Origin: an uncultured Myxococcales bacterium
GTDB taxonomy: Bacteria > Myxococcota_A > Polyangia > Palsa-1104 > JAEUJZ01
Reading direction: 5' to 3'
Assembly (NCBI GenBank): GCA_964537055.1
Contig: CAZHYV010000004.1
Coordinates: 46,172 to 110,171 of the forward strand
Length of the DNA: 64,000 nucleotides
How positions within the stretch are numbered: position 1 is the stretch's first letter; each line of letters starts with the position of its first letter. Below, in pieces: positions 2,669-46,510 of this stretch. Under the pieces are notes generated by a model. It worked only from the letters and a program-made list of their open reading frames with translations. It had not been told where the DNA came from and did not search any database. A program made the position numbers and the translations under genes.

Positions 2669-2927
2669 GGTACCCTCCTACCATTTTCTAAAAATCAATA
2701 ATAATTTAGGACCCTTGTCAAACTTTTATTTTCCTTTTTAGGTCTCGAAGAGTACAAAGAAAACTTGGGATTCGCTGAAATACTGGCTTCTTCTTAAACA
2801 TTTGGAGGGCTGGTACGGCAGAGCTTTGCTTTAAGCCACGAATCGTTCTCAACCACGCTTGCGCATTATGCGGCTCTAGGAGCCTGGGCGCAGCACCACC
2901 AAACAAGATTACTTTCACACCTACAAC

Positions 2928-3076
2928 AAGGAGGTGGGGCGCACTCTTTGCCCAATTGAATCGTTCCGTAAGGATTTTTCGAAGGATGTACCCGATCGGG
3001 CAAACATGCTAAGTGGTTGAAAATACTACCAAAAAAATCGGGGCGAGAGGATTTGAACTTCCGACCCCCAGTCTGG
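2928..3076. repeat. direct repeat copy A (~150 bp) including a 39-nt 3' remnant of tRNA-Pro (3038..3076)
   Basis: About 90% identical to 5656..5821. Contains ...tcggggcgagaggatttgaacttccgacccccagtctgg, the reverse complement of the tRNA acceptor/T-arm. Confidence 0.8.
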
Positions 3077-3298
3077 GGAATTCCGTTGAGAAATCTAAAA
3101 AGATTATTCCGTAGAATCAAGAGATACCTGCCTTTTTCATGACTTATCTACGGATTGATTCATCGGGATTCGGATTAGCTCAATTCATGATTGGAGTAAA
3201 ATTTACGATCTCACTTTTCTCTGTTAGTAAAAAGAAGGTACCTGCCCTATTTCGTTACTCAGGTTCCTTCTCAAGGGTTCTGTGGTATGGAGCAAAGA

Positions 3299-3682
3299 AT
3301 GGAAAAAATTCTCGTGAGTGCTTGCTTGTTAGGAGCGCCTGTTCGTTATAACGGAAAGGATGCTGCCATCGAAAGTCTCTTACTGGCTCGCTGGCAGCAA
3401 GAAGGACGCCTCCTTTCCTTGTGCCCCGAGCAACAAGGAGGCCTTAAAACCCCACGTCCCGCCGCAGAGATTCTGGGAGAAGACGGGAGAGCTGTCTTGC
3501 AGAGAAAAGCCAAGGTGGTCGACCAAGCACTTCAGGAGTATACGGATGCTTTCTTACAAGGAGCTTACGCAGCTCTAAGCGTCTGTCAACGACACCAAAT
3601 CAAAATCGCTATTTTGAAGACGGAACTTCAGGAGGCCGCCCACTGCCTCGATGTCCTTATAGCACAAGGCTCTTCGGGGTGA
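3299..3682 (+). CDS. DUF523 (YbbK-like) family protein
   Basis: N-terminus MEKILVSACLLGAPVRYNGKD is the typical DUF523 signature. The start is chosen at the ATG with a GGAG SD; the ORF could alternatively start at 3287. Confidence 0.6.
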   Translation: MEKILVSACLLGAPVRYNGKDAAIESLLLARWQQEGRLLSLCPEQQGGLKTPRPAAEILGEDGRAVLQRKAKVVDQALQEYTDAFLQGAYAALSVCQRHQIKIAILKTELQEAAHCLDVLIAQGSSG

Positions 3683-3808
3683 TTCCTTACGAGCAAACTG
3701 AAAACTTTTATCCCTAATAGGTAAACAAAGACCAATGAAACGACAACAAAAAGTCTGTTCTAACAAGCTAAAAGGGTCTGTTTCGCAGCTGCCAAATAGG
3801 TTCAAGCC

Positions 3809-4294
3809 ATGACCGCAAGTGAACTGGAGGGTCGAGTCCGTGCAGCCTGGACTAGCATCGCGGCACCTCCTGCAGAAGACATGAAGCTTATGGCGTGGGG
3901 TTGGGGAGAAGAGGCTGCGCGTGCGTTCATCGGAGTTGCTCCCATGGATGTTGATATACAGTCGCACGGATTTCACGCAGCAACACCGCTTTTTGATTTG
4001 CCACCGCGTGCAGCGGCAGCTTATCTTGGGACATATCTTCTATCGTTGATCCAGTCGCTGCAATTTCAAGAAGCGGTTGGCTTGTTCGATGATATCGTTA
4101 CCCGGGCACACATAATCACGTGCATGACGAATCTGCGATTCTGGCATAGGGTCGTACGTGGACAATTACCACTGAATTGTCAACAGGTGGTAGCTCATGT
4201 GGCGCGCTTCTTGGCGGCCCGCCAGGAGGCCCTAGCGCTAAAGCCCGAGCAAGTACAGACATTGCTCGAACTCGCAGATGGTTCCCAGCCATAG
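3809..4294 (+). CDS. hypothetical protein, Ala/Arg-rich, GC-rich ORF (likely horizontally acquired)
   Basis: A 161-aa ORF whose GC is clearly above the flanking genes. It matches no family I recognise. Confidence 0.4.
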   Translation: MTASELEGRVRAAWTSIAAPPAEDMKLMAWGWGEEAARAFIGVAPMDVDIQSHGFHAATPLFDLPPRAAAAYLGTYLLSLIQSLQFQEAVGLFDDIVTRAHIITCMTNLRFWHRVVRGQLPLNCQQVVAHVARFLAARQEALALKPEQVQTLLELADGSQP

Positions 4295-4457
4295 CCCAAA
4301 AAGGTGAATTTCAAAGGCTTCTGGTCCCCTAGCAAAATCGAAGCCGAAGGGAGCGCGTCTTTCTCATAAACCGCCCGACCCGCTTCCATAGGCTATTCAT
4401 CTACCCATTTCTGCTCCTTATTGACATCAATGCCAAAATACCGTACGTTTCCGCATC

Positions 4458-5615
4458 ATGCTGCAAAGATTATGTAAGCTCCCAGAGAAAAGGTCATTTT
4501 TCCTCTTTGGTGCCCGTCAAACCGGAAAAACCACCTTGGTCCGCTCTCTTTTATCCCCACAGGACTGGGCAATCGATCTATTAAAAAATGATACTTACTT
4601 CTCCTATAAAAAAGATCCTTCTCTCTTTCGTAGAGAAGCGGAAAAAAAGATAGCAAATCAGCCCTCTTTACGAATCATGATTGATGAGATTCAGAAAGTC
4701 CCTGAGCTTCTTTCTGAAGTACATTATCTCATTGAGCAATATCCCGGTATCCAATTTATGATGACGGGATCAAACGCTCGGAAGCTAAGAAGAGGCGCAG
4801 CAAACCTACTAGCAGGAAGAGCTTTCAGTAGAATGTTATTTCCGCTCACGTATCAAGAAACTGCCCCACAGTTCCACCTAGAAGACACCCTGCTCTACGG
4901 CTCTTTGCCCGCTGTTTTATCTTTATCTCCAACAGACAAACGAGATTTTTTAAGGGCTTATACTGACACCTATTTAAAAGAAGAAATCCAGGCTGAAGCT
5001 TTGGTTAGAAATCTAGGGGGATTTCATCGCTTCTTAGAAGTCGCCTCTGCTCAATGCGGTGAGACGATTAATTTTGCCTCCATTGCGAGAGAAAGCGGAA
5101 TTGCTTCGCGTACGATCCAAAGTTATTACGAAATTCTAGAAGACACATTGATCGGTTTTCGATTAGAGGCTTGGAGGAAGAGTGCTCGCAAACGACTTTT
5201 GGAACATCCAAAATTCTATCTTTTCGATACAGGGGTTACGAATGCTATCAATCATCGTTTAGAAGGAAGGCTAGACCCTGTCCAAAAAGGAAGGTTATTT
5301 GAACAATTTATTATTTTAGAAACGGTGAGGATGCTTTCTTATCAGCAAAGTGACATACGGGCTTATTATTGGAGAACCAACCATGGGGCTGAGGTAGATT
5401 TGGTCTTAGAAAAAAACAATGATCTGATTGCAGGGATTGAGATCAAATCATCTCGAGAGATTGCTAGAGCTGATCTGACCGGGCTTCGCTCCCTGAAAGA
5501 GGATTATCCCCATGCAAAATCGTTCATTGTTTCGCAGCTTCCGCACAGCTTCGACCTTGATTTTGCGACTGTATTGTCGTTTCAAGATTATTTTCAGTGG
5601 TTATTAACCCAATAG
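4458..5615 (+). CDS. AAA+ ATPase of the AAA_14 + DUF4143 family
   Basis: Walker A GARQTGKTTL near the N-terminus and a ~385 aa architecture typical of this family. Paralogous to 8488..9615. Confidence 0.8.
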   Translation: MLQRLCKLPEKRSFFLFGARQTGKTTLVRSLLSPQDWAIDLLKNDTYFSYKKDPSLFRREAEKKIANQPSLRIMIDEIQKVPELLSEVHYLIEQYPGIQFMMTGSNARKLRRGAANLLAGRAFSRMLFPLTYQETAPQFHLEDTLLYGSLPAVLSLSPTDKRDFLRAYTDTYLKEEIQAEALVRNLGGFHRFLEVASAQCGETINFASIARESGIASRTIQSYYEILEDTLIGFRLEAWRKSARKRLLEHPKFYLFDTGVTNAINHRLEGRLDPVQKGRLFEQFIILETVRMLSYQQSDIRAYYWRTNHGAEVDLVLEKNNDLIAGIEIKSSREIARADLTGLRSLKEDYPHAKSFIVSQLPHSFDLDFATVLSFQDYFQWLLTQ

Positions 5616-5655
5616 GAAATCTCTTGAACTTATACACTCTGTCTTCATTTTCCAA

Positions 5656-5821
5656 AGGAGGTGGGGCGCAATATTTGCCCAATTGAATCGTTCCGTAAAC
5701 GTTCCGTAAGGATTTTTCGAAGGATGTACCCGATCGGGCAAACATGCTAACTGCTTGAAATTGTTACTAAAAAATCGGGGCGAGAGGATTTGAACCTCCG
5801 ACCCCCAGACCCCCAGTCTGG
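5656..5821. repeat. direct repeat copy B (overlaps the 3' half of tRNA-Pro and ~120 bp downstream of it)
   Basis: Aligns with 2928..3076. Contains an internal cgttccgtaa duplication relative to copy A. Confidence 0.8.
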
Positions 5822-5849
5822 TGCGCTAACCAGGCTGCGCCACGCCCCG
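5775..5849 (-). tRNA. tRNA-Pro (anticodon GGG)
   Basis: Cloverleaf read by eye. Acceptor CGGGGCG/CGCCCCG, D-stem GCGC, anticodon stem CCAGA/TCTGG with loop CTGGGGG, T-arm GGAGG-TTCAAAT-CCTCT, discriminator A, no encoded CCA. Confidence 0.85.
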
Positions 5850-6080
5850 AAAAGTAAAGTGGTTTTATCAGCAATACGCTTTGCCGTCAAGGATTGTTCC
5901 ATAAGCCTCCAGAAAATCTAGCGTCCCCTTCCAGATACCCCTGTAGACTACCTCAAGGCCAGAGCATTCGTGAGTCAGCTGTTGCAAAACGCGCTTCCAG
6001 CCAGCGATGGCCCGTCCCCTTCTGGCCCTTTTCTTATAAAATTCATACCTTAGCCGCCAAGAATCTGCTATAACTCACGA

Positions 6081-7361
6081 ATGCGTTCGTCGCGAATTCC
6101 AGGGTTTTTCCAAATGCCGGCCGAGCTTAGGCGGAAAGAGATTGCCACACGCTGCAAGCTATCCCAAGAAGAAGTGGATCATCTTCTCATGACAGGCCTT
6201 GATTTTTCCACCGCAGACCGAATGACCGAAAATGTCGTTGGTCTATTTAAGCTTCCTCTTTCGATTGCTACCAATTTCCAAATCAATGGAAAAGACTACC
6301 TCATTCCTCTTTGCATCGAAGAACCCTCGGTGGTTGCCGCCGCCTCCAGAGCAGCCCTTTTGGTCCGAGAGGGTGGTGGCTTTTCGGCTACTTCCGACCC
6401 ACCTGTTATGATTGGACAGGTTCAACTACTCGAGGTAAAGGATACGAAAGCGGCCAAAGAATCGCTCCTTGCTAGGCAAGATGAACTTATTTCTCTTGGG
6501 AACCAGATGGTGCCTTCCCTGGTTCGTCGTGGGGGCGGCTTGCGAGGAATCGAAGTACGTATTCTCACAGAAAGCCCATCCCCTCCTCGTCAAGCTACAG
6601 AACCACATCTTTCCTTCTCTACGACCTCAACCACGAAAGCCTCATCCTCAGTCATCTCATCCACAAGAGCCCTATCTCCTGGACAAACATCTTCCGGCGA
6701 AATGGTGATCCATCTTCTGGTTGATTGCCAAGATGCGATGGGTGCCAATCTGACCAACCAAGTCGCAGAATCTTTGGCCCCAAGGCTTGCCGAGCTTTCG
6801 ATGGGTCGCGTGGGACTACGCATCCTATCGAATCTTTCAATCTATCGGAAAGTCCAAGCAAAGTGTACCATTCCTGTAAGCACGCTTGCCTATCAATCTT
6901 TCTCAGGCGAAGAAATGCGAGACCGTATCATTTCGGCAAGTGATTTTGCCAAAAAAGATCCCTTTCGAGCAGCCACCCACAACAAAGGAATTATGAACGG
7001 GGTAGATGCGCTAGTGATCGCGACGGGGAATGATTTCCGTGCCGTAGAAGCAGGCGCACATGCCTACGCATCACTCTCGGGGAACTACCAGCCACTCGCC
7101 ATTTGGAGTAAAAGCAAAGAAGGGCACTTACAGGGAGAGCTAGAGATGCCTCTCTCGCTTGGAACCAAAGGAGGAACCCTTGCCGCCAGAAGGGATGTAG
7201 CCTTGGTACTTAAAATTCTCGAAATAGAGTCCGCCCAAGAACTTTCTCAGGTGGCTGGATGTGTAGGCCTTGCCACCAACCTTTCTGCGCTCCGGGCTCT
7301 TTCCAGTGGGGGCATCCAAAAAGCCCATATGCCTCTCCATTACCGATCAATCGCAAAATAG
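6081..7361 (+). CDS. mvaA: class II (NAD(P)H-dependent) HMG-CoA reductase with a Ser/Thr-rich low-complexity insertion
   Basis: ENVVG, DAMGAN and GTKGG-type motifs are present. It is collinear with Pseudomonas mevalonii HMGR except for a ~40 aa S/T-rich insert before the DAMGAN block. Confidence 0.85.
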   Translation: MRSSRIPGFFQMPAELRRKEIATRCKLSQEEVDHLLMTGLDFSTADRMTENVVGLFKLPLSIATNFQINGKDYLIPLCIEEPSVVAAASRAALLVREGGGFSATSDPPVMIGQVQLLEVKDTKAAKESLLARQDELISLGNQMVPSLVRRGGGLRGIEVRILTESPSPPRQATEPHLSFSTTSTTKASSSVISSTRALSPGQTSSGEMVIHLLVDCQDAMGANLTNQVAESLAPRLAELSMGRVGLRILSNLSIYRKVQAKCTIPVSTLAYQSFSGEEMRDRIISASDFAKKDPFRAATHNKGIMNGVDALVIATGNDFRAVEAGAHAYASLSGNYQPLAIWSKSKEGHLQGELEMPLSLGTKGGTLAARRDVALVLKILEIESAQELSQVAGCVGLATNLSALRALSSGGIQKAHMPLHYRSIAK

Positions 7362-7475
7362 ATCTTTGGTCGTAAATTGAACCTATTGTAACCAGGTCAG
7401 CCTAAATAGATAACACAGAGTTAGCCCCTTTATTCTTTCCTCGACCCCAGATATAGGCTGTGATATGATAGACAG

Positions 7476-8480
7476 ATGGAGCTTCTCCCATCCCTGCCCG
7501 AAAGTCTTGTGGACCTACCTTTTCAACATATTCCCCTAGGTACCTTCTCGGGGCATCTGCCGTACTTAAATTTTAAGCACCTATCCTCTCGTCCTTGGCA
7601 GCGCTTCACCCATCAGAAACATTGGATGTTTTTATCACTCACCGCCGATCCCATCTTTATGGGGATCGCTATTGTAGATTTAAGCTATGCTACCAAGGCC
7701 TTTTTGTTTGTATACGACCAGCAGAAAATGTCTTTTCTTGTCCATTTTTCGAAAATGGGTCCTCCTCTGCTTGCAGGTGTGAAAGCAACCCCGACGTTCG
7801 ATCGGATGGCGTGGTTTCGTTTTGGAGGAGTGTTTTTGTGCTTGTACAGCAGTCTTAAAGAGGAACGCTATGAGCTTACAGTCCACGCACCCCATCTTTT
7901 GATCGAAGCAGAGCTTTCCGGTAGGGAAGCACCTGCACCATTGTCAGCGATAGGGACACATGGACCCGGTCTCCTTCATACTACAGAAAAGTCTGTCTTC
8001 CTGAACGCAACTGGACAGCTGAGAGTAAACGGAACGCTTCATTCCCTTAACCACGGTATCGCTGGTCTTGATTATACGCATGGATACCTGCCCCATCGGA
8101 TGGACTGGCGCTGGGCGTTTGCACAAGGCCATGCGAAGACAGGAGAATCCGTGGCTTTTAATATTGCCGACGGCTCCTTGGGTGAATCTGAATGTGCTCT
8201 TTGGATCAATCAGGAGCTTATCCCAATTTCAAAAGGGGAATTCCAATTCTCAAATCATACAAGCAAGACCCCTTGGAGGATTTCTTCTTTGCACAAGACG
8301 GTAGATCTTCTATTTTACCCTGAAGAGTTTCATAAGGAGAAAAACAATTATGTGTTTGTTTCCTCAGACTACATCCAAGGCATAGGTCGCTTTTCTGGAA
8401 GTATCTCTCTTCCAAACCGCCCCACCCTACTTATTGATAAACTCATCGGTGTCACCGAGGCTCAAAAGGTTAGCTGGTAA
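7476..8480 (+). CDS. hypothetical protein (possibly DUF2804-like)
   Basis: A 334-aa ORF with no recognisable catalytic motifs. The family guess is from memory only. Confidence 0.4.
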   Translation: MELLPSLPESLVDLPFQHIPLGTFSGHLPYLNFKHLSSRPWQRFTHQKHWMFLSLTADPIFMGIAIVDLSYATKAFLFVYDQQKMSFLVHFSKMGPPLLAGVKATPTFDRMAWFRFGGVFLCLYSSLKEERYELTVHAPHLLIEAELSGREAPAPLSAIGTHGPGLLHTTEKSVFLNATGQLRVNGTLHSLNHGIAGLDYTHGYLPHRMDWRWAFAQGHAKTGESVAFNIADGSLGESECALWINQELIPISKGEFQFSNHTSKTPWRISSLHKTVDLLFYPEEFHKEKNNYVFVSSDYIQGIGRFSGSISLPNRPTLLIDKLIGVTEAQKVSW

Positions 8481-8487
8481 GACTCCC

Positions 8488-9615
8488 TTACACCAGCTGC
8501 TGCAAAAACTTATATGCAGGACAAACACGAATTCCTTCCTTCGAAAGATAGTCTTTTTGCCCCATAAAAGAAATTTGCCAAGCTTCGCAATTGGGGAAAC
8601 GTGTTTTTAAATACAGAAGTCCTCTTCCAATGTCCGTATCATTCCATTTACAATCGATAAACCAAAGAGGCTTGCGGTTTTCCAGCACGACAAAATCAAC
8701 CTCCCGGCCATCTATATCACGGAAATATCGTAGCTCTACGTCCCTACCTTCTGCATCCTCTCGAAAATGCACCCATTTCAGTAAATGGGAAGCCACCATA
8801 TTCTCAAACCGCAATGAAGGCTCAGGAACTAAAGACCAATCAAAATGATAATGTTTTTGCTCCTTTTGAACAGCTCTTATCTTAGGCTGTAACTTCCCTC
8901 CCTGAAAAGGAAGCAGCCGAAAGATAGCATACAATCTTTCTAAAATACTTACCCATCGTGAAACAGTTTTATGGCTTGTCTGTAGATCTTCACGAAGAGA
9001 GTTAATGGATAAAGGGCTTCCCACCAGCTCAGGCAAACGTAGCGTAAGAAGTTCCATCTGTGATAAATCATTCACCCTCTCTAGGCTAGTAAGGTCTTCA
9101 TGGAGGAGACGATTTCGATACTCACGCGACCATCTCTTTGCTTCCATCTCAGATCCAATTAGAAAAGGCTCTGGAAAGCCTCCCAAAATAAGTAAATCAT
9201 TCAATTCTTTTTGAAGTGTCAGATTTAGCTCTTTAACTGAAAATGGATGCAGACGCAGATAATGATATCTCCCCTGAAGGGAGTCTCCACCAAACCGATA
9301 AAAGTCGAGACGAGCGCTTCCCATTACTAAAATTTGGTGTTTTTTATCATCGAGATCATAAGTACCCTTCAAATAACTTCGCCAGAGGCGATATTTATGA
9401 AGCTCATCAAAAACCCAAAGAGGCGATGGAGGAAATTGATGCTTCAAAATTCTTTCTCGATGGAGAGGAGAATCCCAGTTTAAATAACCCAAAGGCTCCT
9501 GTAAAAGCTGTTTTGCGATGGTCGTTTTCCCTACCTGCCTAGGTCCTCCTACAAACACCATCTTTCGTTTAAGATCAGCCTGAATTTGAGATTGGAGATA
9601 ACGTTCTTTTTTCAC
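8488..9615 (-). CDS. AAA+ ATPase of the AAA_14 + DUF4143 family (second paralogue)
   Basis: Walker A GGPRQVGKTT. Same architecture as 4458..5615. Confidence 0.8.
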   Translation of the reverse strand: MKKERYLQSQIQADLKRKMVFVGGPRQVGKTTIAKQLLQEPLGYLNWDSPLHRERILKHQFPPSPLWVFDELHKYRLWRSYLKGTYDLDDKKHQILVMGSARLDFYRFGGDSLQGRYHYLRLHPFSVKELNLTLQKELNDLLILGGFPEPFLIGSEMEAKRWSREYRNRLLHEDLTSLERVNDLSQMELLTLRLPELVGSPLSINSLREDLQTSHKTVSRWVSILERLYAIFRLLPFQGGKLQPKIRAVQKEQKHYHFDWSLVPEPSLRFENMVASHLLKWVHFREDAEGRDVELRYFRDIDGREVDFVVLENRKPLWFIDCKWNDTDIGRGLLYLKTRFPNCEAWQISFMGQKDYLSKEGIRVCPAYKFLQQLV

Positions 9616-9627
9616 ACAACAATATTA

Positions 9628-9688
9628 CGAGTTTTTTCACCCAGAGTCAAAATTACTCGCGAGTTTTTTCACCCAGAGTCAAAATTAC
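9628..9688. repeat. two perfect 29-bp tandem direct repeats (cgagttttttcacccagagtcaaaattac) separated by 3 bp, immediately upstream of the ATPase gene start at 9615
   Basis: Read directly from 9628..9656 and 9660..9688. Confidence 0.9.
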
Positions 9689-9892
9689 ACACACATCTAT
9701 TTGTTCTCGCTTATTCTTTCAATCGAAGACGTCTTTCTAGAGGCTTCCTTCTTGAATCTAGTAGAGCTGTAAGCTAATCATCTTTACCATAGTAGCCTAC
9801 AAGAACACCTCACAAAATATCTACCAATCCGAAGCACTTCTGGTAAGCTTGCTTGCACTCTGGTAAGCTTCTCTTTTTGTAGAGGTACGGTC

Positions 9893-10951
9893 ATGATACG
9901 TGTTCTTGAACTAAATCGAGCAGTTGAAAATGCTCGTGTTGTGGAGTACCAAGACGCCCAAGCAGCGCTTTTCGCCCAAAGGCCTGATTCCCATATCCTA
10001 CGTTGGGTAGATATTACTGAGCAAACAAGCGAAGATATTGAACTTATTCGGAAAGGGTTTCAATTCCACCCCTTAACGCTTGAGGATTGCCTCCATTTCG
10101 ATCAACGTCCAAAGCTAGAGGAATTTCCCGGGAATCACCCCTATGTATTTATTGTCATTCATAATTTTAAGATATGCATGACAGGAGATACAACCCATTC
10201 TGACGAAGCTTTGACCCTCCCTCAAAGTAGCCATTCTTCTACCAAAGAAAAGTCTTTGCTTCGGATGCAAGAGGTGCATGCCTATTTGGGCCCGAATTAC
10301 CTCGTGACGGTACATCGCCATCCAATTGCTGAAATTGATGGATTATTTCAAAGGTTACGTTCTGATACCGGTCTTTTTCAAAGAGGATGCGATTTCCTTT
10401 ATTATCTTCTTGCCGACCAACTATGCGATAGCAATTTTCCCGTGCTCGAGCATCTTTCGGACGAACTCGATCAAATCGAGGAACTAGTGATCGCTTCTCC
10501 AGAAAAACGAGTGCTTACGTTAATTTACGATACTCGGAAAGTGCTGGTAAGGATGAGAAGAACGTTATCCCCGCAGCGCGATCTGATGGCGCTGTTAGCA
10601 CGTCATGGAGGTGGGACGTACATCCAGCCAAGCACAGCCCCCTATTTTCGCGACGTATATGACCACCTTGTTAGGATCAACGAAGCGATTGAATCAGGTC
10701 GCGACCTTTTAGGAAACTGTGTTGATGCATATATGTCTTCAGTAGGACAGCGCACCAACGATATTGTAAAGCAGCTCACCATTCTTTCGTCAGTGATGCT
10801 GCCATTGACATTTGTGGTAGGCTTTTTCGGCATGAATTTTGACGCACTGCCTTTTCATTCGCTCGGTTGGTTTGTATTTGTTTTACTGGTGATGATTTTG
10901 ATTTTGCCGACAGGCATGGTCTATTGGTTTCATCGGAAGAGATGGATATGA
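9893..10951 (+). CDS. corA: CorA-family Mg2+/Co2+ transporter
   Basis: C-terminal GMNF motif (FFGMNFDALP) followed by two TM helices. Confidence 0.85.
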   Translation: MIRVLELNRAVENARVVEYQDAQAALFAQRPDSHILRWVDITEQTSEDIELIRKGFQFHPLTLEDCLHFDQRPKLEEFPGNHPYVFIVIHNFKICMTGDTTHSDEALTLPQSSHSSTKEKSLLRMQEVHAYLGPNYLVTVHRHPIAEIDGLFQRLRSDTGLFQRGCDFLYYLLADQLCDSNFPVLEHLSDELDQIEELVIASPEKRVLTLIYDTRKVLVRMRRTLSPQRDLMALLARHGGGTYIQPSTAPYFRDVYDHLVRINEAIESGRDLLGNCVDAYMSSVGQRTNDIVKQLTILSSVMLPLTFVVGFFGMNFDALPFHSLGWFVFVLLVMILILPTGMVYWFHRKRWI

Positions 10952-11964: not shown

Positions 11965-12251
11965 CGAGATACATTCCTTTAGAAGTACCTTCTTTTAAAC
12001 GTGTTCTTACTAAGCGTATTCTTACCGTAACAACAGATTAAGTAGTTAGACTCTCATTGCAGGTCCTTATTCTTGTCGGAGAAAGTAGGAACATGTAGTC
12101 TGAAGTAATTACTTATCTCACGAATTTTCATACGATCTTTTACTTTTTTTCCTAACCAAAAATTTTTGTGTTAGGTTGCGCTCTCGTTAGGGCAGCAGAG
12201 AATACGTTTGCCCTTAATAACCCTGGTTGTAACTACCGTTTTGGAGATTTT

Positions 12252-13772
12252 ATGAAAACATATATTGCGCTTCTAGGAACCCTTCTTTTCCTTGCTTCTT
12301 GTAACTTTAGCATCCCGGCAAAGCCTTTTCCAGATCCAATGGATATGCCTCCCGTTGGAACACAAGATTTTAACGTAGCCAACATTGATACAAAATTCGG
12401 TGATACTAAAGGGGGAACGACCATCACCCTTACGGGCAAGGGGCTCACCCAAGATACCAAAGTGACGGTTGGCGATAAGGTAGCTGTGGTCAAAAGTGCA
12501 TCTGCAGACGGGACTAGCCTTCAATTCACTTTACCAGCAAGTCCAGGAACTGTGGGAAAGAAAACCATTACCCTCATGAACACAAAGGGTATGGTAGTCG
12601 AGTTAAAGGATGTGTTTACTTACTATTTAGGAAATATCTCTTTTACCAGTATGTCTTCAGCAGCAATTCTTAGTAGTACCTCTCCTTTGCATATTGCGGT
12701 AGCGAATCTTGATAATGACGCAAACAACATTCAAGATCTTGCCATTGTCAATATGGACAACCGAAACGTTGATATTCTGGTTGGGGACGGCCAAGGGAAC
12801 TTCAGCCTGAATCCAATCCTCCAGTTTAACTTTGGTGGTACTTACCATAATTTTTCTGCTACTGGAGATTTCAACAACGACGGTCTTACCGATTTAGCCA
12901 TTATCAGCCCAGGCGATAGTTTAATCGCGCTTGCCCAAAAACGTCCGGGAGCAACCAACGGTTTTGTTATTGAGGGAAACATAGGTTCTGGGAATATCCC
13001 AAATGCGATTGTTCTTGTGGATCTGGATGGAGATAACCGTCTTGACATTGCTGCAGCCAACACAGACACCACCAATATGAACCGTCTTAGCGTCTATCGT
13101 AATAATACTCCAGCCATGGGAGTCGTTACCTACCTTCCTCCCCAAAAACTTCCTCTGCCAACTGCCGTTTCCTCCCTCCTAGCAGCGGACCTGAACAAGG
13201 ATGGAAAAGTTGACTTGGTTGCTGCTTCCTCTACCAGCTTCCATGCCCTCCTTAACACAGGGATGGCCGCCACACTCTTTGCAGGCACTCCAGCGGACCA
13301 AGCTTTCTCAGGCTTTACTCCTCAGGCAGGGTTTTTTGCCCCTCTTTCGATGACCTCCTCATCTAACCAGATAGACCTTGCGTTTGTAGGAACGGATGGC
13401 ACCAACAAGACCATGGCTTTCTATGATAACACCTCTCCAGGGACCTCCCTTGCCTTTACCAAAAACACTGCCAGTGTGATGGTAGAGTCAGGCGTGGGAA
13501 ATCCGGCAAGCTCTCTAGCCATGGTTGATTTCAACAAAGATGGCTATAACGATTTTGTTGTCACCTCAGGTTCAACCATTCGGGTCTATCTTAGCAAAGC
13601 CTTAGAAGGAAAAGGCCTAGCTTTCGCAGATGCGATTGTATTCCAGACCGTAACACCTACGGTCCTAAGAGACATGAAATTGGTAGATACCAACGCAGAT
13701 GGATTAATGGATATCGTCACCATTTCTCGAAATGATGCAAAGGTCTACGTATTCCAAAATAGCTCAAACTAG
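12252..13772 (+). CDS. lipoprotein with an IPT/TIG domain followed by FG-GAP (integrin-alpha-like) repeats
   Basis: Start at the ATG with a GGAGA SD; lipobox LASC. DxNxDGxxD repeats: DFNNDGLTD, DLDGDNRLD, DLNKDGKVD, DFNKDGYND, DTNADGLMD. Confidence 0.75.
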   Translation: MKTYIALLGTLLFLASCNFSIPAKPFPDPMDMPPVGTQDFNVANIDTKFGDTKGGTTITLTGKGLTQDTKVTVGDKVAVVKSASADGTSLQFTLPASPGTVGKKTITLMNTKGMVVELKDVFTYYLGNISFTSMSSAAILSSTSPLHIAVANLDNDANNIQDLAIVNMDNRNVDILVGDGQGNFSLNPILQFNFGGTYHNFSATGDFNNDGLTDLAIISPGDSLIALAQKRPGATNGFVIEGNIGSGNIPNAIVLVDLDGDNRLDIAAANTDTTNMNRLSVYRNNTPAMGVVTYLPPQKLPLPTAVSSLLAADLNKDGKVDLVAASSTSFHALLNTGMAATLFAGTPADQAFSGFTPQAGFFAPLSMTSSSNQIDLAFVGTDGTNKTMAFYDNTSPGTSLAFTKNTASVMVESGVGNPASSLAMVDFNKDGYNDFVVTSGSTIRVYLSKALEGKGLAFADAIVFQTVTPTVLRDMKLVDTNADGLMDIVTISRNDAKVYVFQNSSN

Positions 13773-14067
13773 TCTTCCCCTCAAAAGCCGGCCTGATCGA
13801 AGGAAGGCCTGGTTGAGCGTTCTTTGCCTCATCTAGGCCTTCCCTTTTCGCCCTAACAGCCTACTATCTCCTACAAGCAGATTTCGTAATAACCTTTTAA
13901 GAAATTGGTGGCTTAGCTCTTCCTCAAGAAAAAACAAATTAGTCTGTATTTGCGCTTGAACCTGTGCTAAAATGAATAAACGTTTATCTTTCTAAAGCAC
14001 ATAGATAGACATGAAGCAAAAGAACGATCAAATGGTATCGTAGGTAATGAACGTAAAGGAGACAGTG

Positions 14068-15492
14068 ATGGGACAAAAACATTTATCTCAAATCTTTGGG
14101 GTCGTATTTCTGCTCTCTTCTCTAAGCTGTGGAACAAATTCCTCAGATCCAAATGGCGCTATTGATCCATCCCTACCCCCTAAAATTAAGTCCATCACCC
14201 CTGGCTCCGCAAAAACAAGCGGTGGCGAAGTCGTTTCGATCCAAGGAGAAAACTTCATTTCTGGAATTACTGTTTCCTTTGATGAGCAAGCTGCAGAGGA
14301 TATAGACCTGGTCTCTTCTACAGAAATTAAAGTTTTGGTGCCTAAACGGATAGGGATTCAAGGGAACGTTCCCGTAAAACTTACAAACCATACCTCTCAC
14401 GGAGCACTCTCTGATACGGCGACTGAACTATTTGCTTACTATCCCTCGTTGATGCAATTTGGTTCAATTCTCTCCGTCCAAGGAATGGTCCCCACTCTTG
14501 TTGCAACTTCTTTGAATATGACAGGTGATGGAAGGCCATCGCTTATAGCAAGCCAGACGAATAGCCAAACCAATGATACCGAGTTAAGCGTTTTTTTATA
14601 TAACTCTGTGACAAAGCAGTTTGTTGGTACTTCGTTTTACTCGACAAAAGAGGTTCCTACGGTAATGTCTAAAGCATTTTTGAATACCGATAACAAAGAA
14701 GATCTTCTTGTGGGTCTCTCCTCAGGAAAGATTTTACTGTTCTTCAATAATGGGGCAGGAAGCTTTGTTCCACCCATTACGCTAGTGCCCGCTATTACAG
14801 GGGCTGTTAAATTTCTTACCCCTGTAGACTACAATAAAGATGGGAATATGGATATCGGCGTTATGGTGGATAACTACCTTGGCTTTATTCATAATAACGG
14901 GGATGGAACCTTCGCCCTTTTAAAGATGGGATTTGCAGGAAATACTCCCACCTTTCCGGCGATGATTGATTATAACCATGATGGTTGGTTAGACTTTTTA
15001 GTAATCTCCAATGCCAGAACGTACTTACTTCAAGGGAACCCAGACGGAACTTTCCAAACGGCCTCTGGCATGAGTGAGATTGCCTCGCCAAAAGCTTTCG
15101 TGGTGTCTGACTTTAACAACGATAAGAAGGCAGATCTCTTGGTAGTGAAAGACAATGGTGGTGTCATAGAATCCAGCATATGGTTCGAACACGGAGGAGC
15201 TTTTCAGGCAAAAGATTCCCTACCTTTTGTAGAAATCCCTAAGAATATGATAGCAACTGACTTGAATGGAGATTCAATACTCGATCTAATCATTACAGGC
15301 GAAAGTATGATGTTTGCTCATCTTGGCAATGGAGATGGAACTTTCCAAGCGCCTACTTATTTCTCAAGCCCTGCGAAGAGCAGCTTGGTTACGATTGGGG
15401 ACCTCGACTTAGATACAAAGCCCGATATTCTAGTTTACTACCTCGACGGAATGAACCCTACTCTGGGACTTGTCCCGAACACATCCCAGTAA
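14068..15492 (+). CDS. secreted protein with an IPT/TIG domain and FG-GAP repeats (paralogue of 12252..13772)
   Basis: Start at the ATG with an AAGGAGA SD. Repeats DYNKDGNMD, DYNHDGWLD, DFNNDKKAD, DLNGDSILD. Confidence 0.75.
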   Translation: MGQKHLSQIFGVVFLLSSLSCGTNSSDPNGAIDPSLPPKIKSITPGSAKTSGGEVVSIQGENFISGITVSFDEQAAEDIDLVSSTEIKVLVPKRIGIQGNVPVKLTNHTSHGALSDTATELFAYYPSLMQFGSILSVQGMVPTLVATSLNMTGDGRPSLIASQTNSQTNDTELSVFLYNSVTKQFVGTSFYSTKEVPTVMSKAFLNTDNKEDLLVGLSSGKILLFFNNGAGSFVPPITLVPAITGAVKFLTPVDYNKDGNMDIGVMVDNYLGFIHNNGDGTFALLKMGFAGNTPTFPAMIDYNHDGWLDFLVISNARTYLLQGNPDGTFQTASGMSEIASPKAFVVSDFNNDKKADLLVVKDNGGVIESSIWFEHGGAFQAKDSLPFVEIPKNMIATDLNGDSILDLIITGESMMFAHLGNGDGTFQAPTYFSSPAKSSLVTIGDLDLDTKPDILVYYLDGMNPTLGLVPNTSQ

Positions 15493-15555: not shown

Positions 15556-16611
15556 TTAAGAACGAATCAGCTTCAGTATATCCCTAATCGTAATGAGAAG
15601 GATCAATCCAAGCAGAAGCAAGAAGCCAATGGCATGGATCCATTGTTCGGCTTTCTTCGAGACGGATTTTCGGGTAATCATTTCCCAGCCGATAAATAAA
15701 AGCCGGCCGCCATCAAGAGCAGGAATGGGAAGCAGGTTAAAGAATCCTAATGCTGCACTAATGAGGGCAATCGTTTCAAGAGCTTCAATCACCCCAGCAC
15801 GAATCTGGCCCTTCAGCTGCCTTACAATTTGTACAGGCCCGCCTACCTCTTTTAAAGCTTTTCGGTCTGTAAACATCTTCTTAAACCCCTGGATCTGTGT
15901 CCAGGTAAGCGCCACGGGATAGATAAGCGCATTCTTTACAGCAGTCCCTAACCCAAGGTGCTGCCGCTCGATCTTAGGGATAGTGACTACCCCAATCCGC
16001 CAACTGTTCTCTTCAAACACAGGGGTCACCATGACGGTTTGCTTATCATGCCCCCTTTGAATCTCAATCACCATCGGATGACCGGCGGATTTCTGAATGC
16101 GTTCTACAAATTCATCAGGGGTCTTGATAAAAACACCATCCAAGGTGAGGATGGTATCCTTCATTTGGAGCCCTGCTTTTGCAGCTGGATATCCATCCAA
16201 GGCTTGTCCAACCATCACTCCCTCTTCCAAAGGAGTAGGCGTCCCTGCACTTAGGTTCAGACCCAATACCAGAAAGCAGGCAAATAGATAGTTGATCAGG
16301 GGCCCGGCAAGCACTACCAAAAACCGCTGCCAACCAGGCCGATTTGGATAAAGCCTAGGGTCTGCAGGATCGTTTTTCTTTTCTCCTTCTTCTTCAGGGT
16401 TCAGCCCGGCGATCTGTACATAACCTCCTAAGGGAATCGGAGCAATTTGGTAGGTCGTTTCTCCTATCTTCTTTGACCATAAGGCTGGACCAAATCCAAC
16501 CGAGAATTTATCCACCCGCATCCCGCAAGCACGAGCCATAAGCAAATGACCAAATTCATGAATGATCACCAAGAAACATAAAGCCAAAATGGCAAGAAGA
16601 ATAGAAAGCAT
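15556..16611 (-). CDS. rseP: RIP site-2 zinc metalloprotease RseP
   Basis: HEFGH motif in the first TM helix, a PDZ domain, and a C-terminal LDGG motif. Confidence 0.85.
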   Translation of the reverse strand: MLSILLAILALCFLVIIHEFGHLLMARACGMRVDKFSVGFGPALWSKKIGETTYQIAPIPLGGYVQIAGLNPEEEGEKKNDPADPRLYPNRPGWQRFLVVLAGPLINYLFACFLVLGLNLSAGTPTPLEEGVMVGQALDGYPAAKAGLQMKDTILTLDGVFIKTPDEFVERIQKSAGHPMVIEIQRGHDKQTVMVTPVFEENSWRIGVVTIPKIERQHLGLGTAVKNALIYPVALTWTQIQGFKKMFTDRKALKEVGGPVQIVRQLKGQIRAGVIEALETIALISAALGFFNLLPIPALDGGRLLFIGWEMITRKSVSKKAEQWIHAIGFLLLLGLILLITIRDILKLIRS

Positions 16612-17924: not shown

Positions 17925-18087
17925 GCGTCTCTGAAAATACTTGATTCCGAAGGCTCTTAAGAATTGCTATCCCGTTTTTCTGCTGATCCTGTACGGTCCA
18001 TGTACGTTTCTGTCGTTGAGGTACGGCAGAATTACATATTATTTGTTTGTCTTGCATGCACGTTGTCACGCATGTTACGATAAGTAT

Positions 18088-19923
18088 GTGCATACTTTAT
18101 CTGTTTATTTCAAGCAAATCCATAAAGTTCTCCTTACTATTCTGTTTATAGGAATAGCAAGTTGCTCACGTTCTCAAAACCCCTCTTTGGGGAGTTCCAA
18201 CGCTTCCTTTTTATGTCCCCAAGATGATCTATATGAATCTTGCCAAGCACTGCTCCGGCTTCATCAGCATCAGATCGGACAAAACGGAGGGTGGAAATCC
18301 GAATTATTTCAGCGCACCTGGGTAAAATCATCGAATATTTGCGATTGGCAGGGAGTCCGCTGTAGAGATAAGAAAGTCTTCGAACTCGATTTTACTGGGG
18401 CTGGAATTACCTCACTGCCTGAGCAACCTTTTGCAGGAATGGATGATCTGTCCGAAGTCATGTTAGGCTCTAACTTCATCCGCGTTCTTCCTCAGAAAAC
18501 ATTTGCTAGCCTCCCTTCTTTAACAAAGGTTTTTTTGAACAACACCTTAATTGAAGAAATTCAAGAGAATAGTTTCTCAGGCACATCAAATCTACAAGTA
18601 CTAGAATTAAAACAATCCCCTATTGTCAATGTGCATCCAAATGCATTTGCCGATTTGAAGAAGTTACAGGCACTATCGATTTCTCTTAAGAATCCTCAAG
18701 CTCTTCAAGCAATTCGCCGACTCTCCTCTCTAGAGAGGCTCGACATTCATCTTGATTTTCCAGACCTGCCGGCGAATGCATTTTTGGGTCTTTCGAGTTT
18801 GAAAAAGCTGCTTATCGAAAATTCTAGTCAACTTCATTCTATTTCTGCCGATGCCTTTCAATCATTATCAAATGTAGAAGAGTTCGTCTTTAACACGACA
18901 AATATTGGAGAATTTCCAGCTTTCTTATTTACCCCTCTAAAAAATGTAAGAACTTTATTCTTAGTAGGGCACCCAAGCCTAACCCAAATATCTCCTTTCG
19001 CATTTTCGGCTCTTATGAAGCTTGAATTTCTTGTAATGAGAAATTTCTCTCAGATCCAAGTTTTCCCTCCTTTTCTATTAAGCGATCTAAGTGCGTTAAA
19101 AGTTCTTCAAATGTCTGGGCATCCGTTGTGGAAGTCTATACCCGCTAACTTTTTTGAACATCTTCACACTTTAGAAACCCTACGATTGGAAGATAATGGG
19201 CTGGTAGAATTATCCAGCAAAACCTTTTCTGGCTTAATTAATCTGAAAGAGCTTGAGTGTAACAATAATCAGATCGTGAGTCTTTATTCTCAAACTTTTT
19301 CTACAATATCAGCAGTCAGGGTCATTAGCCTTAGGAACAATAAGATCTCAGTGCTTCCTAGCAATGTATTTTCTGTTATGACGAGTTTAGAAAGTTTAGA
19401 TCTTTCTTCTAATGAAATTTCTGTACTAGATAGGCAATCTTTTTTCGGTCTGCTTCAATTAAAACTACTTAAGTTATCATATAATAGAATTTTTGATCTA
19501 AGTGGAAACGTATTCGAATTTATACCAGCTCTGAGAAGTTTACACCTCTCTTCAAATCCCTTAGCTACCGTTCCGCAGGATCTGCTTTTACCTCTTTCGC
19601 AATTAAGCAATCTTTATTTGTCAGATACATCTTTAAAATCGATTCCAGAAAATTTCTTCAGAAGACAATTGAGATTGATGTGGCTTGATTTATCAAGCAA
19701 TCGTTTAGAAAACTTGTCTACTTCTTTTTTTGAAGAGCTAAAAAATGTGAGACAGCTGTATTTACAAGGAAATCCACTTCAAACAGTCGATGAAAGAAAT
19801 TTCGATTTACTCGAGTCTTTAGTCCATCTCGACTTAACAAATACTCCCGTCTCTACTTCACTCAACCTTAGCTCGATTACATGTTCACGAGCTACTGTAT
19901 TGCCGAACCGAATGTGTTTTTGA
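18088..19923 (+). CDS. eukaryote-like leucine-rich repeat protein with an LRRNT_2-like Cys/Trp N-terminal cap
   Basis: More than 20 LxxLxxLxLxxN repeats. Cap CDWQGVRC. A GTG start at 18088 gives a signal peptide ending LLTILFIGIASCS. The true start is uncertain; the ORF track opens at 17941. Confidence 0.7.
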   Translation: MHTLSVYFKQIHKVLLTILFIGIASCSRSQNPSLGSSNASFLCPQDDLYESCQALLRLHQHQIGQNGGWKSELFQRTWVKSSNICDWQGVRCRDKKVFELDFTGAGITSLPEQPFAGMDDLSEVMLGSNFIRVLPQKTFASLPSLTKVFLNNTLIEEIQENSFSGTSNLQVLELKQSPIVNVHPNAFADLKKLQALSISLKNPQALQAIRRLSSLERLDIHLDFPDLPANAFLGLSSLKKLLIENSSQLHSISADAFQSLSNVEEFVFNTTNIGEFPAFLFTPLKNVRTLFLVGHPSLTQISPFAFSALMKLEFLVMRNFSQIQVFPPFLLSDLSALKVLQMSGHPLWKSIPANFFEHLHTLETLRLEDNGLVELSSKTFSGLINLKELECNNNQIVSLYSQTFSTISAVRVISLRNNKISVLPSNVFSVMTSLESLDLSSNEISVLDRQSFFGLLQLKLLKLSYNRIFDLSGNVFEFIPALRSLHLSSNPLATVPQDLLLPLSQLSNLYLSDTSLKSIPENFFRRQLRLMWLDLSSNRLENLSTSFFEELKNVRQLYLQGNPLQTVDERNFDLLESLVHLDLTNTPVSTSLNLSSITCSRATVLPNRMCF

Positions 19924-19958
19924 AAGATAATTAATTAGTGATCACAGGAGAATTTTCC

Positions 19959-21260
19959 ATGGTGTTTGGATCTATACTTCAAAATCTCCGGAACTTCGGA
20001 TGGCTGCTTGTGACTGTCATAGTTCTTAGCGAATGCTCGAAAACAAGACCACCTTCTGCGGTACAAGAGCAACCTCCTGTTCCCCCAGATCAACAATGTG
20101 CACAGGGACCTCTTTACGATGCCTGTAAATCTCTAATCGCTATTCACGAACTGATGCCAGCCTCCTCTTGGAATATAGGGCATAATAAAACTTGGTTAAG
20201 AAAAAACAATTTGTGTGAATGGGAAGGCGTTTTATGCAATCAAACCTCGGAACGTGTTGTTGGTTTATCGCTGATAGGATATAGTAACGCAATAAATGTA
20301 GTTACATTTCCTCCGTCTGTATTCCTAGGCCTTCGAGATTTAGAAGCGTTAGAAATTTCCCAATTCCACCTTAAACTTCAATCTCAGCAATTTGCTTCTC
20401 TTACCAAATTAAAACGCTTGGTCATTGCCGAGAATTTGATCGATGAAGAGATTCCAGAAACGACCTTTCAAAATCTACGAAGTCTTGAAATTCTAGAGCT
20501 CTCAAAAAATAAGTATAATCGACCTTGGCTTTTACCCACTGATCTATTTCAAGATTTGATCTCTCTTACGCAACTTCATCTTGAGAGAAACGGGTTTCTC
20601 CAAGTTCCTCAAGGGTGGTTTAAATCATTGAAGCAACTAACTTACTTAGATATCTCTGGTAACCAAATTACGGCCTTGTCGCGGGGTATTCTACAGGGGT
20701 TAGAAAATGTGTCGATTTTAGAGGCTGCAGAAAATCAGATTGGAAGCCTTCCTGTAGACACATTCTTTGATATGGCACTGCTAGCACGCTTAAATCTAAG
20801 TAACAACTCTCTTACGGTTCTCCCAGAGCGCTTGCTAGAATCAAATTTATTTCTGCGCTCTATCAATCTATCGGAGAACCAGTTTCATAGTCTGCCTGAG
20901 CTTCTCTTCCGAAATCAAGAATTCCTCCTCAGCCTCGACCTGTCAGGAAATTATTTCCAAAGACCGTTGCCCAACGGTCTCTTTGCAAACTTGTCAAACC
21001 TAGAAGATTTGGACCTAAGCAGAACAGGACTTCAGAAGCTCTCCTCTACTTGGTTTGCACTACCCCGTTTACGAAATCTTCAATTAAGTGAGAATCTTAT
21101 TGTTCTTGACTCTGCTGTGGTATTTGACCAGCTTCGCAACATCCTTTTTATCAATTTGGGAGAAAACAACCTACCAAACACTGCGAGAGTATCTGCAACC
21201 ACTTGTACCCAGCTAAAACTGAACCAGGGATTGATCTATCCTCAATTTCTGTGCCCCTAG
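19959..21260 (+). CDS. eukaryote-like leucine-rich repeat protein (tandem paralogue) with an LRRNT_2-like cap
   Basis: ATG at 19959 with an AGGAG SD. Cap NLCEWEGVLC, followed by ~15 LRRs. Confidence 0.75.
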   Translation: MVFGSILQNLRNFGWLLVTVIVLSECSKTRPPSAVQEQPPVPPDQQCAQGPLYDACKSLIAIHELMPASSWNIGHNKTWLRKNNLCEWEGVLCNQTSERVVGLSLIGYSNAINVVTFPPSVFLGLRDLEALEISQFHLKLQSQQFASLTKLKRLVIAENLIDEEIPETTFQNLRSLEILELSKNKYNRPWLLPTDLFQDLISLTQLHLERNGFLQVPQGWFKSLKQLTYLDISGNQITALSRGILQGLENVSILEAAENQIGSLPVDTFFDMALLARLNLSNNSLTVLPERLLESNLFLRSINLSENQFHSLPELLFRNQEFLLSLDLSGNYFQRPLPNGLFANLSNLEDLDLSRTGLQKLSSTWFALPRLRNLQLSENLIVLDSAVVFDQLRNILFINLGENNLPNTARVSATTCTQLKLNQGLIYPQFLCP

Positions 21261-40442: not shown

Positions 40443-40480
40443 AAAATCCCCCACAGGCTTGCTCGCCTCCAAAGGGATCT

Positions 40481-41329
40481 TTAAAATAAAAATCCCGTTG
40501 TCAATCCTACAAAAATTCCTTCAAGCAATGTCTTGTTCCCTGTATTGTAAAGAATGTGATACCGAGCATCACCTTGCAAATAGAAAAACATAGGTTTACT
40601 TACGGGTAATTTTGGAGCAAACCTTAGTCCAAATTCAAACCAAGACTCAGAAAGAAGACTCCCAAAACTCCCCGGCGCATCCGGTCTTCCATCTCCACTT
40701 TTGCCAACGGATACATCTGATGACAGCTCTGCAAAAAGGCTGAAGGATATTTTTTGATTTCCCATCTTGACGTCGCATCCAGGCGCGAGACCAAGCAGAT
40801 GGATTCCTGTAAAGGGCTCAGACGTCCCAAATGCCCTCCAGCTTTTTACCCCTACTGCTTGTCCCCGAATGCCACAGCCTCCCTCTGCCCATTGATTCTT
40901 GCGGCGGAATTCTACCTTGCCATGACCTAGAGACACAACGACCAGAGATTCTGTGTCCATCCGCTTTGGGTTCCGGAAATAACGAATCACTCCCCCTCCC
41001 CAGGATAGCCACTCTTTCGCCTGAAATCGAACTATCGTGGTTTCAACACTTGCGTAAGGGATGTAGTGTTCATAATCGTTTGGACCAAACGCCAGTCGAA
41101 CCTTTGTTTCGGCAGCATGGCACTGAAACTTGCCACATAGCTTGGGAAAATCAAACGCCGCCCCAAACTGGGCATCCAGCAAAAATCCTAACTGGGTTCG
41201 TTGAGGAATCACCAAGAGCCCTACCCCTACCTTGGTTTGCTCCCAGGTAGCTGCGTGTGTAGGAGAAGACTGCATACACATTATGATCACTAAGCAGGTT
41301 GAAAATAGGCAGACAGAAATTTTCCTCAC
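40481..41329 (-). CDS. predicted outer-membrane beta-barrel protein
   Basis: Signal peptide ending AHA-A. C-terminus ...GLTTGFLF with a terminal Phe and alternating hydrophobics. Confidence 0.5.
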   Translation of the reverse strand: MRKISVCLFSTCLVIIMCMQSSPTHAATWEQTKVGVGLLVIPQRTQLGFLLDAQFGAAFDFPKLCGKFQCHAAETKVRLAFGPNDYEHYIPYASVETTIVRFQAKEWLSWGGGVIRYFRNPKRMDTESLVVVSLGHGKVEFRRKNQWAEGGCGIRGQAVGVKSWRAFGTSEPFTGIHLLGLAPGCDVKMGNQKISFSLFAELSSDVSVGKSGDGRPDAPGSFGSLLSESWFEFGLRFAPKLPVSKPMFFYLQGDARYHILYNTGNKTLLEGIFVGLTTGFLF

Positions 41330-46481: not shown

Positions 46482-46510
46482 ACCTTGTTTCTTTTTATAG
46501 TAGGCAAGTA

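Follow-up and report, generated by a model that had tools for sequence, protein, structure and literature searches.

A stretch of 64,000 nucleotides from an uncultured Myxococcales bacterium (contig CAZHYV010000004.1, positions 46,172 to 110,171; hereafter the window) carries a gene for a class II HMG-CoA reductase (HMGR; HMG-CoA stands for 3-hydroxy-3-methylglutaryl-coenzyme A). Its product combines a long Ser/Thr/Pro-rich loop with a very short C-terminus, and its gene stands apart from other genes of the mevalonate (MVA) pathway. The protein is nevertheless likely to be an ordinary, functional biosynthetic class II HMGR, which probably uses nicotinamide adenine dinucleotide phosphate (NADPH) and serves an MVA pathway with dispersed genes; the loop would be a lineage-specific disordered expansion, and the short tail a trait of the clade. 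In other words, it adds a member to a known family, one that is mildly unusual in two of its structural features. Its reaction, the reduction of HMG-CoA to mevalonate with (probably) NADPH, would be one step in a pathway whose other genes would lie elsewhere in the genome.

Fold, motifs and catalytic residues

The open reading frame (ORF) is uninterrupted across 426 codons. Its product matches Pfam PF00368 with an E-value of 7.6e-99 (331.6 bits against a cut-off of 27; profile positions 5–367 of 368) and the NCBIfam equivalog TIGR00532 with 378.3 bits, above its cut-off of 259.95 and up to position 394 of the 395 in the profile. The best match in the PDB is 1qax, the Pseudomonas mevalonii enzyme (E = 1.7e-101). 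Scores against the class I models remain far below their cut-offs, with 53.5 bits for TIGR00533 (cut-off 441.8) and 30.7 bits for TIGR00920 (cut-off 778). Three characteristic motifs, ENVVG (residues 50–54), DAMGAN (218–223) and GTKGG (361–365), correspond to the family patterns ENV(I/V)G, DAMGxN and G(L/T)VGG; in the last of these, Lys takes the place of Val, and the same kind of change is found across the protein's clade. The initial annotation, made from the sequence alone, had named this class and these three blocks, and the profile and structure matches agree with it.

In an alignment of 60 sequences, E81, K302, N306, D318 and H416 align with the catalytic Glu83, Lys267, Asn271, Asp283 and His381 of P. 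mevalonii HMGR, and all of these columns are invariant (Table 1). The AlphaFold model, built on this alignment, has a predicted local distance difference test score (pLDDT) of 89.7 and a predicted template modelling (TM) score of 0.88, and is confident outside the loop. By Foldseek, it gives TM values of 0.84–0.92 to P. mevalonii HMGR, and of 0.81–0.92 over the P. mevalonii, Delftia and Burkholderia structures. The three-domain class II architecture (large domain, small cofactor-binding domain and flap) is present in the model. Judged by alignment and prediction, fold and motifs are thus intact, with every catalytic residue in place.

The true start is most likely the ATG at 6081 (Met1) and not that at 6114, because the conserved N-terminal motif SSRIPGF, in which S4, R5 and F9 are invariant among the 60 sequences, lies 5' of Met12. 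The public gene call for this protein (P0241, 415 aa) begins at Met12, at 6114. It is placed in a 90% cluster under a 186-aa fragment as representative and is therefore hidden from the homologue search, where the top matches have 51–52% identity; a scan of GTDB gave no HMGR homologue above 50% identity. From 6777 on, the window is matched exactly by an independent Logan contig (L088), which confirms the TAG stop and the downstream gene. Its first 27 nucleotides (L088:1-27; SRR11567529_1981345) are a Nextera transposase adapter (…AGATGTGTATAAGAGACAG), directly followed by the window-identical DNA, a case of adapter contamination in a public assembly.

Table 1. Features of the HMGR gene and its surroundings, in window coordinates.
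Feature	Position	Strand	Remarks
tRNA-Pro(GGG)	5774..5850	-	a mere neighbour, with no functional link; HMGR is situated past its 5' end
Class II HMG-CoA reductase coding sequence	6081..7361	+	426 aa, including stop codon; ATG start, TAG stop
Catalytic Glu81 (= P. mevalonii Glu83), motif CIEEPSVVAAAS	6321..6323	+	alignment to P. mevalonii HMGR; invariant column
Cofactor-specificity positions V144, S146, R150 (= P. mevalonii D146/L148/L152, Enterococcus faecalis Y146/S148/R152)	6510..6530	+	ungapped HMMER alignment, residues 105-169 = P. mevalonii 107-171
Ser/Thr/Pro-rich expanded hairpin loop, residues 163-207 (TESPSPPRQATEPHLSFSTTSTTKASSSVISSTRALSPGQTSSGE)	6567..6701	+	loop-length alignment, AlphaFold; predicted disordered
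Catalytic Lys302, Asn306, Asp318 (= Lys267, Asn271, Asp283), motifs THNKGIMNG and ATGNDFRA	6984..7034	+	invariant columns
Minimal flap, one C-terminal helix (residues 412-424) with catalytic His416 (= His381)	7314..7358	+	alignment, AlphaFold

Cofactor residues and direction of the reaction

In P. mevalonii HMGR, the determinants for NADH are Asp146, Leu148 and Leu152, whilst Tyr146, Ser148 and Arg152 contact the 2'-phosphate of NADPH in the E. faecalis enzyme (PMC10070635). The window's protein has Val144 where P. mevalonii has the NADH-marking Asp146, followed by Ser146 and Arg150. Among 190 homologues, Asp occupies the first of these positions in 28, and Arg the third in 155. Since the NADH signature is missing and the Ser/Arg pair of NADPH enzymes is present, the cofactor residues look NADPH-type and argue for the biosynthetic direction. 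No gene for HMG-CoA lyase (mvaB) or another enzyme of mevalonate catabolism is found among the 49 sizeable ORFs of the window. The word 'degradative' in the name of TIGR00532 is a generic class II label that also covers HMGRs encoded in MVA operons.

The Ser/Thr/Pro-rich loop

HMMER splits the alignment with P. mevalonii HMGR into two blocks (residues 3–169 = 4–171, and 208–425 = 173–390), which leaves about 38 residues unmatched (35–41 extra). Loop and tail lengths were compared by alignment, first with 120 homologues and afterwards with 190. Between GIEVRIL and MVIHLL, the window's protein has 45 residues, twice the next longest loop; the 190 homologues have between 3 and 22, with modes at 4 and 10. 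Ser, Thr and Pro together make up 58% of the loop against 16% of the remaining protein, and 21 of its 45 residues are Ser or Thr. The GC content of the underlying DNA equals that of the gene. In the AlphaFold model, residues 164–205 are coil with a pLDDT of 45–60, at the tip of a small-domain hairpin formed by β-strands 153–163 and 206–215; DAMGAN follows the second strand, with the loop at that strand's opposite end. The segment is thus predicted to be a compositionally biased, disordered expansion of a length-variable hairpin loop at the distal tip of the small domain.

Clade members have loops of 4–15 residues at this site, and among the compared sequences the 45-residue version is, from alignment, unique to the window's organism. 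Because the loop of the nearest relative (P0022) is only 10 residues long, the large insertion would have arisen after the two lineages split. No conservation of the loop sequence is seen in any relative compared; smaller Ser-rich loops do occur at the same site in the clade member P0096 (PSQSSALSHPSSTGA) and in Pendulispora P0017. An origin as a mobile mini-element, duplication or tandem expansion was considered and rejected: the window contains no further copy, Tandem Repeats Finder detects no array, and inverted or direct repeats do not flank the segment. The loop is presumably tolerated or neutral, and not mechanistically required.

The initial annotation had described a Ser/Thr-rich insertion of about 40 residues, which holds. 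It placed the insertion immediately before DAMGAN; this is incorrect, as the 10-residue strand 206–215 intervenes. It also asked whether the insertion is a surface loop, which the prediction of an exposed, disordered coil at a hairpin tip answers in the affirmative, and allowed that the insertion might be common in the clade and so ordinary, which the alignment of orthologues contradicts.

The short C-terminus and the minimal flap

The flap of class II HMGRs is a three-helix bundle that persists in class II bacterial homologues, and its first helix bears the catalytic His; class I enzymes have the first helix only, and what the larger flap of the bacterial enzymes does is described as unclear (PMC10070635). 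In the window's protein, only 10 residues follow His416, compared with 40–70 in most homologues and 47 in P. mevalonii HMGR, so that the absence of a Pseudomonas-like C-terminal extension, as first annotated, is real. Helices 2 and 3 are missing. The three-helix bundle is characteristic of class II but does not define it, since the TIGR00532 profile stops before helices 2 and 3 and short-tailed members are found inside MVA operons.

The 114-nucleotide spacer downstream of the gene (7362..7475) has the length of the missing tail, and was considered as a decayed or frameshifted remnant. This was rejected, as tblastn gives only noise and a hidden Markov model (HMM) of the tail gives E > 1 in all frames (positive control, 1.4e-17). 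The same HMM detects no tail remnant downstream of HMGR in the clade relatives. Because there is no remnant and the trait is common to the clade, the short C-terminus is a trait of a small, rare HMGR clade and not a product of decay.

Short tails also occur beyond this clade. P0045 has 16 residues after the His and is encoded within an idi2-mvk-mdd-pmk-HMGR-hpnCDE operon. P0036, a 719-aa protein of the cultured myxobacterium Sandaracinus amylolyticus, joins GHMP-kinase domains to a class II HMGR with 13 residues after the His. From this operon and this fusion, short-flap HMGRs appear compatible with a function in the MVA pathway. By analogy with class I enzymes, a one-helix flap would suffice to deliver the catalytic His.

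The clade and its divergence

In a neighbour-joining tree, the window's protein groups with P0004, P0022 and P0096. A search with a profile of the clade adds P0249 and possibly P0276; members score 673–739 bits and the next proteins at most 591, a drop from which the clade is judged to be rare. All members have the motif HMPLH, and 13–18 residues follow the His in P0004, P0022, P0096 and P0249. These four also share with the window's protein the short tail, a GT(K/Q)GG motif, a solitary gene and similar departures from the family consensus; their short loops set them apart from it. Identities between the window's protein and the other members are 49–51% by BLASTP and 53–56% in a four-way alignment.

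Compared with the genome of P0022, HMGR is 49% identical (tblastn), a 2-hydroxyacid dehydrogenase 62%, signal peptidase 43%, TsaE 49% and LepA 86%. Since other proteins of the same pair are 43–62% identical, the low identity of this HMGR to database proteins is best read, on these comparisons, as a consequence of a phylogenetically isolated host and not of unusually fast evolution of the gene.

Comparison with characterised and operon-encoded HMGRs

P. mevalonii MvaA (1qax, 4i4b), the structural archetype of class II, is about 44% identical to the window's protein, with the same fold, the same catalytic Glu/Lys/Asn/Asp/His set, and ENVxG, DAMGxN and GxxGG motifs in common. It is NAD-specific, with Asp146/Leu148/Leu152 in place of Val/Ser/Arg; its hairpin loop has 2–3 residues instead of 45, and it possesses the complete three-helix flap, with 47 residues after His381 instead of 10. 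The P. mevalonii mvaA gene is linked to that of HMG-CoA lyase, for the catabolism of mevalonate.

The NADPH-specific enzymes of E. faecalis (7m3h/7m1z) and Streptococcus pneumoniae (5wpj) share the Ser/Arg pair for the 2'-phosphate (E. faecalis Ser148/Arg152 = Ser146/Arg150 here) and, presumably, the biosynthetic direction. In contrast to the window's protein, to which they are 34–39% identical, these enzymes of Gram-positive cocci have no long loop and a full three-helix flap, and E. faecalis has Tyr146 where the window's protein has Val. In the E. faecalis enzyme, Gln410 of the flap contacts NADP+ (PMC10070635).

Next best by the clade profile (568–588 bits) are the operon-embedded Myxococcota-type HMGRs P0016, P0254 and P0045. 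Together with P0036, they share the cofactor pattern V/Y-x-S/N-x3-R with the window's protein, and P0045 and P0036 are short-tailed as well. Unlike the window's protein, they are encoded in idi2-mvk-mdd-pmk-HMGR operons or fused to GHMP-kinase domains, and they remain near the family consensus: P0045 departs from it at 2 of 132 columns. The catalytic domain of class I HMGRs (human 1dq8, archaeal) has a first-helix-only flap analogous to the one-helix flap described here, but is otherwise remote (17% identity, TM about 0.58), and the window's protein is not a class I member.

Genomic context and host lineage

Pfam scans of the 49 sizeable ORFs in the window reveal no HMG-CoA synthase, thiolase, GHMP kinase, diphosphomevalonate decarboxylase, isopentenyl-diphosphate isomerase, dxs or dxr, and tblastn of idi2, mvk, mdd and pmk from three operons against the 64-kb window gives nothing better than E = 0.07. 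This bears out the initial annotation, which saw no MVA gene adjacent to HMGR; by implication, it made too much of the gene's isolation and of the absent C-terminal extension, as both recur in relatives. When Myxococcota-type proteins were used as queries (E ≤ 1e-8) and full 10-kb flanks were required, 19 of the 35 GTDB loci of the nearest homologues, mostly from Chloroflexota, had no lower-MVA gene within 10 kb of HMGR. The three clade loci with usable flanks (L081, L082 and L084) are also solitary and have no neighbours in common with the window. The closest relatives outside the clade lie in idi2-mvk-mdd-pmk-HMGR operons, which likewise have no mvaS adjacent. As over half of the nearest homologues are themselves solitary, an isolated HMGR gene is no evidence of an orphan enzyme.

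The host looks, from its sequences, like a Myxococcota-like member of a phylogenetically isolated, poorly sampled lineage. The closest named matches of the window's LepA are from a metagenome-assembled genome (MAG) labelled 'Myxococcales bacterium' (80%) and Polyangia MAGs (about 75%). A closer LepA, P0123 (86% identical), is encoded on the same 179,933-bp bioreactor-metagenome contig as P0022, with lepA-lepB-tsaE synteny. An MVA pathway has been reported in myxobacteria, Bradymonadales and Oligoflexia (PMC8237579).

The window also contains rseP (Peptidase_M50 and PDZ domains; 15556–16611, minus strand), with no dxr beside it. Linkage of dxr and rseP is widespread in bacteria that use the methylerythritol phosphate (MEP) pathway, and this arrangement may be a weak hint that the organism lacks MEP.

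The initial annotation had left two alternatives, an MVA pathway with dispersed genes, or an isolated enzyme used for something else, such as HMG-CoA-derived branched acyl units. The former is favoured because solitary HMGRs are common, relatives lie in MVA operons without mvaS, the host is Myxococcota-like, and the cofactor residues are NADPH-type. Branched acyl units find no support; the route to them leaves HMG-CoA by dehydration and decarboxylation, without HMGR.

The composition of the gene is host-like, with a GC content at third codon positions (GC3) of 0.464 against 0.442 ± 0.048 for the window. Recent horizontal transfer is not supported, as GC3 is within the range of the window and the gene lies outside the tRNA-linked segment described below. 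The downstream DUF2804 gene was considered as a conserved operon partner and rejected, since it is not beside HMGR in L081, L082 or L084. In two of these loci (L082:9081-13002 and L084:7312-11277), HMGR overlaps an upstream Peptidase_M74 gene (a MepA-like murein endopeptidase) by 4 nucleotides and is followed by a gene for a protein of about 300 aa of unknown function and then by Peptidase_M15_2, possibly a cell-wall-related operon that contains HMGR. A search with Rfam over 2900–9900, including the 230-nucleotide leader of HMGR, returned the tRNA only and no regulatory RNA, and promoter and terminator scans were at background level.

Alternative explanations

Several observations weigh against an ordinary biosynthetic enzyme with a dispersed pathway. 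No other MVA gene is visible in the 64 kb of genome covered, and the existence of the pathway is inferred. Of 132 columns with a conservation of 95% or more, 11–23 deviate from consensus in the clade, 17 in the window's protein and a median of 1 in other homologues. Among the substitutions are Phe for Trp in GNDWR and for Tyr in DPYRAATH, Lys for Val in GTVGG, and Arg in place of His370. The tail after the His is the shortest of 191 sequences, the flap has been described as crucial for catalysis (PMC10070635), and literature searches on truncated or short-flap class II HMGRs returned no activity or biochemical data. The insertion is present in one assembly only; L088 begins just 3' of it and cannot confirm it. 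Sequence divergence and minimal flap together leave room for an activity that may be reduced or altered.

Taken further, these features could describe a decaying or inactive relic, which, once parted from the MVA operon, shed two helices of the flap, acquired a junk insertion along with its substitutions, and makes no mevalonate. The 17 deviating columns, the extreme tail, the outsized loop and the solitary gene would all fit such a history, yet it is unlikely: the ORF has stayed open over its whole length with the insertion in frame, every catalytic residue and motif is kept, and, the loop apart, the model is confident. The gene has diverged from that of the nearest relative about as far as housekeeping genes have. 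At least four further lineages, now only about 50% identical, carry such a short tail together with substitutions of the same class, which implies long-term maintenance.

A role outside isoprenoid synthesis, either as an oxidative enzyme that turns mevalonate into HMG-CoA, like that of P. mevalonii, or on another acyl-CoA, is very improbable. Such a role would make sense of the clade's substitutions in and near conserved motifs (GTVGG to GTKGG, RGH to KAH) and of the lack of MVA genes near 4 of 4 clade loci that have usable flanks, and the NCBIfam family is indeed named 'degradative'. That name, however, is the generic TIGR00532 label discussed above. Val stands in place of the NADH-marking Asp146, Ser146 and Arg150 match NADPH-type enzymes, and the equivalents of Glu83, Lys267, Asn271, Asp283 and His381 are unchanged; neither HMG-CoA lyase nor a mevalonate transporter, nor any other conserved partner, accompanies the gene, and the clade loci differ in what surrounds HMGR.

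An ordinary biosynthetic function is compatible with a further proposal, namely that the loop is a regulatory module (a target of Ser/Thr kinases, an O-glycosylation site or a docking element) that tunes isoprenoid flux. Eukaryote-like kinases abound in myxobacteria, and phosphorylation regulates the HMGR of eukaryotes. The many Ser and Thr residues of a segment predicted to be disordered and exposed, and the smaller Ser-rich loops in P0096 and P0017, would suit this proposal, but it too must be considered improbable: the loop sequence is not conserved in relatives, the nearest of which has 10 residues there, the loop occupies the hairpin end that points away from DAMGAN, the window shows no linked kinase gene, and low-complexity growth of variable loops is usually neutral. 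More far-reaching, and very improbable, is the idea that the window's protein and P0004, P0022, P0096 and P0249 constitute a functionally distinct class II subfamily, which has dropped two flap helices and moved out of the MVA operon, with the loop as a regulatory handle (for phosphorylation, glycosylation or docking) in the window's organism. If true, it would be a bacterial counterpart to the post-translational control of eukaryotic HMGR.

Neighbouring features

The neighbourhood described in the initial annotation, a tRNA gene and a repeat-bounded segment next to HMGR, is as stated. The segment of 2.7 kb (3000–5821) abuts the 3' end of the tRNA-Pro gene, and HMGR lies outside it. It is bounded by an imperfect direct repeat (3000–3076 and 5738–5821; 84–88% identity) made up of the 3' part of the tRNA gene and about 36 nucleotides beyond its 3' end. 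It contains a 2-thiouracil-desulfurase-like gene (3287–3682), a 161-aa ORF with a GC content of 0.545 (3809–4294) and a DUF4143/AAA_14 ATPase gene (4458–5615). From its sequence, the segment resembles an old duplication of the att type that an integrated element left behind; no integrase is visible. A second gene for an AAA_14 and DUF4143 ATPase (8488–9615, minus strand) is inverted with respect to the first (plus strand), and the two flank the block of tRNA-Pro, HMGR and DUF2804. An interpretation of this pair as a recent duplication or a composite element was rejected, as the two are only 23% identical.

Between the second DUF4143 gene and corA, a perfect 29-nucleotide direct repeat (CGAGTTTTTTCACCCAGAGTCAAAATTAC; 9628–9656 and 9660–9688, with a 3-nucleotide spacer) may represent an operator, or else a promoter element that has been duplicated. 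Further away, two neighbouring leucine-rich-repeat proteins (660 and 440 aa) are encoded at 17941–21260, the stretch with the lowest GC content in the window (0.38, against about 0.46 overall), and several pairs of FG-GAP/TIG paralogues are found at 12168–15492 and 38370–43462. At 45498–46885, a BtrH_N/DUF4872 gene and a 135-aa ORF are located between lepA and lepB; in the nearest relative (L089:11803-11928), lepA is followed directly by lepB (Peptidase_S26, 425 aa) and tsaE.

Implications

The finding is mainly one of calibration: an isolated HMGR gene is no sign of an orphan enzyme, and the NCBI label 'degradative' makes no statement on function. Neither the flap nor the loop alters what is known of the pathway. 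The tip of the small-domain hairpin accommodates a disordered insertion of 45 residues and is, on that account, a permissive site for tags or engineering. Natural class II HMGRs with a one-helix, class I-like flap exist, some of them in MVA operons, and such short-flap enzymes could serve to probe what flap helices 2 and 3 do.

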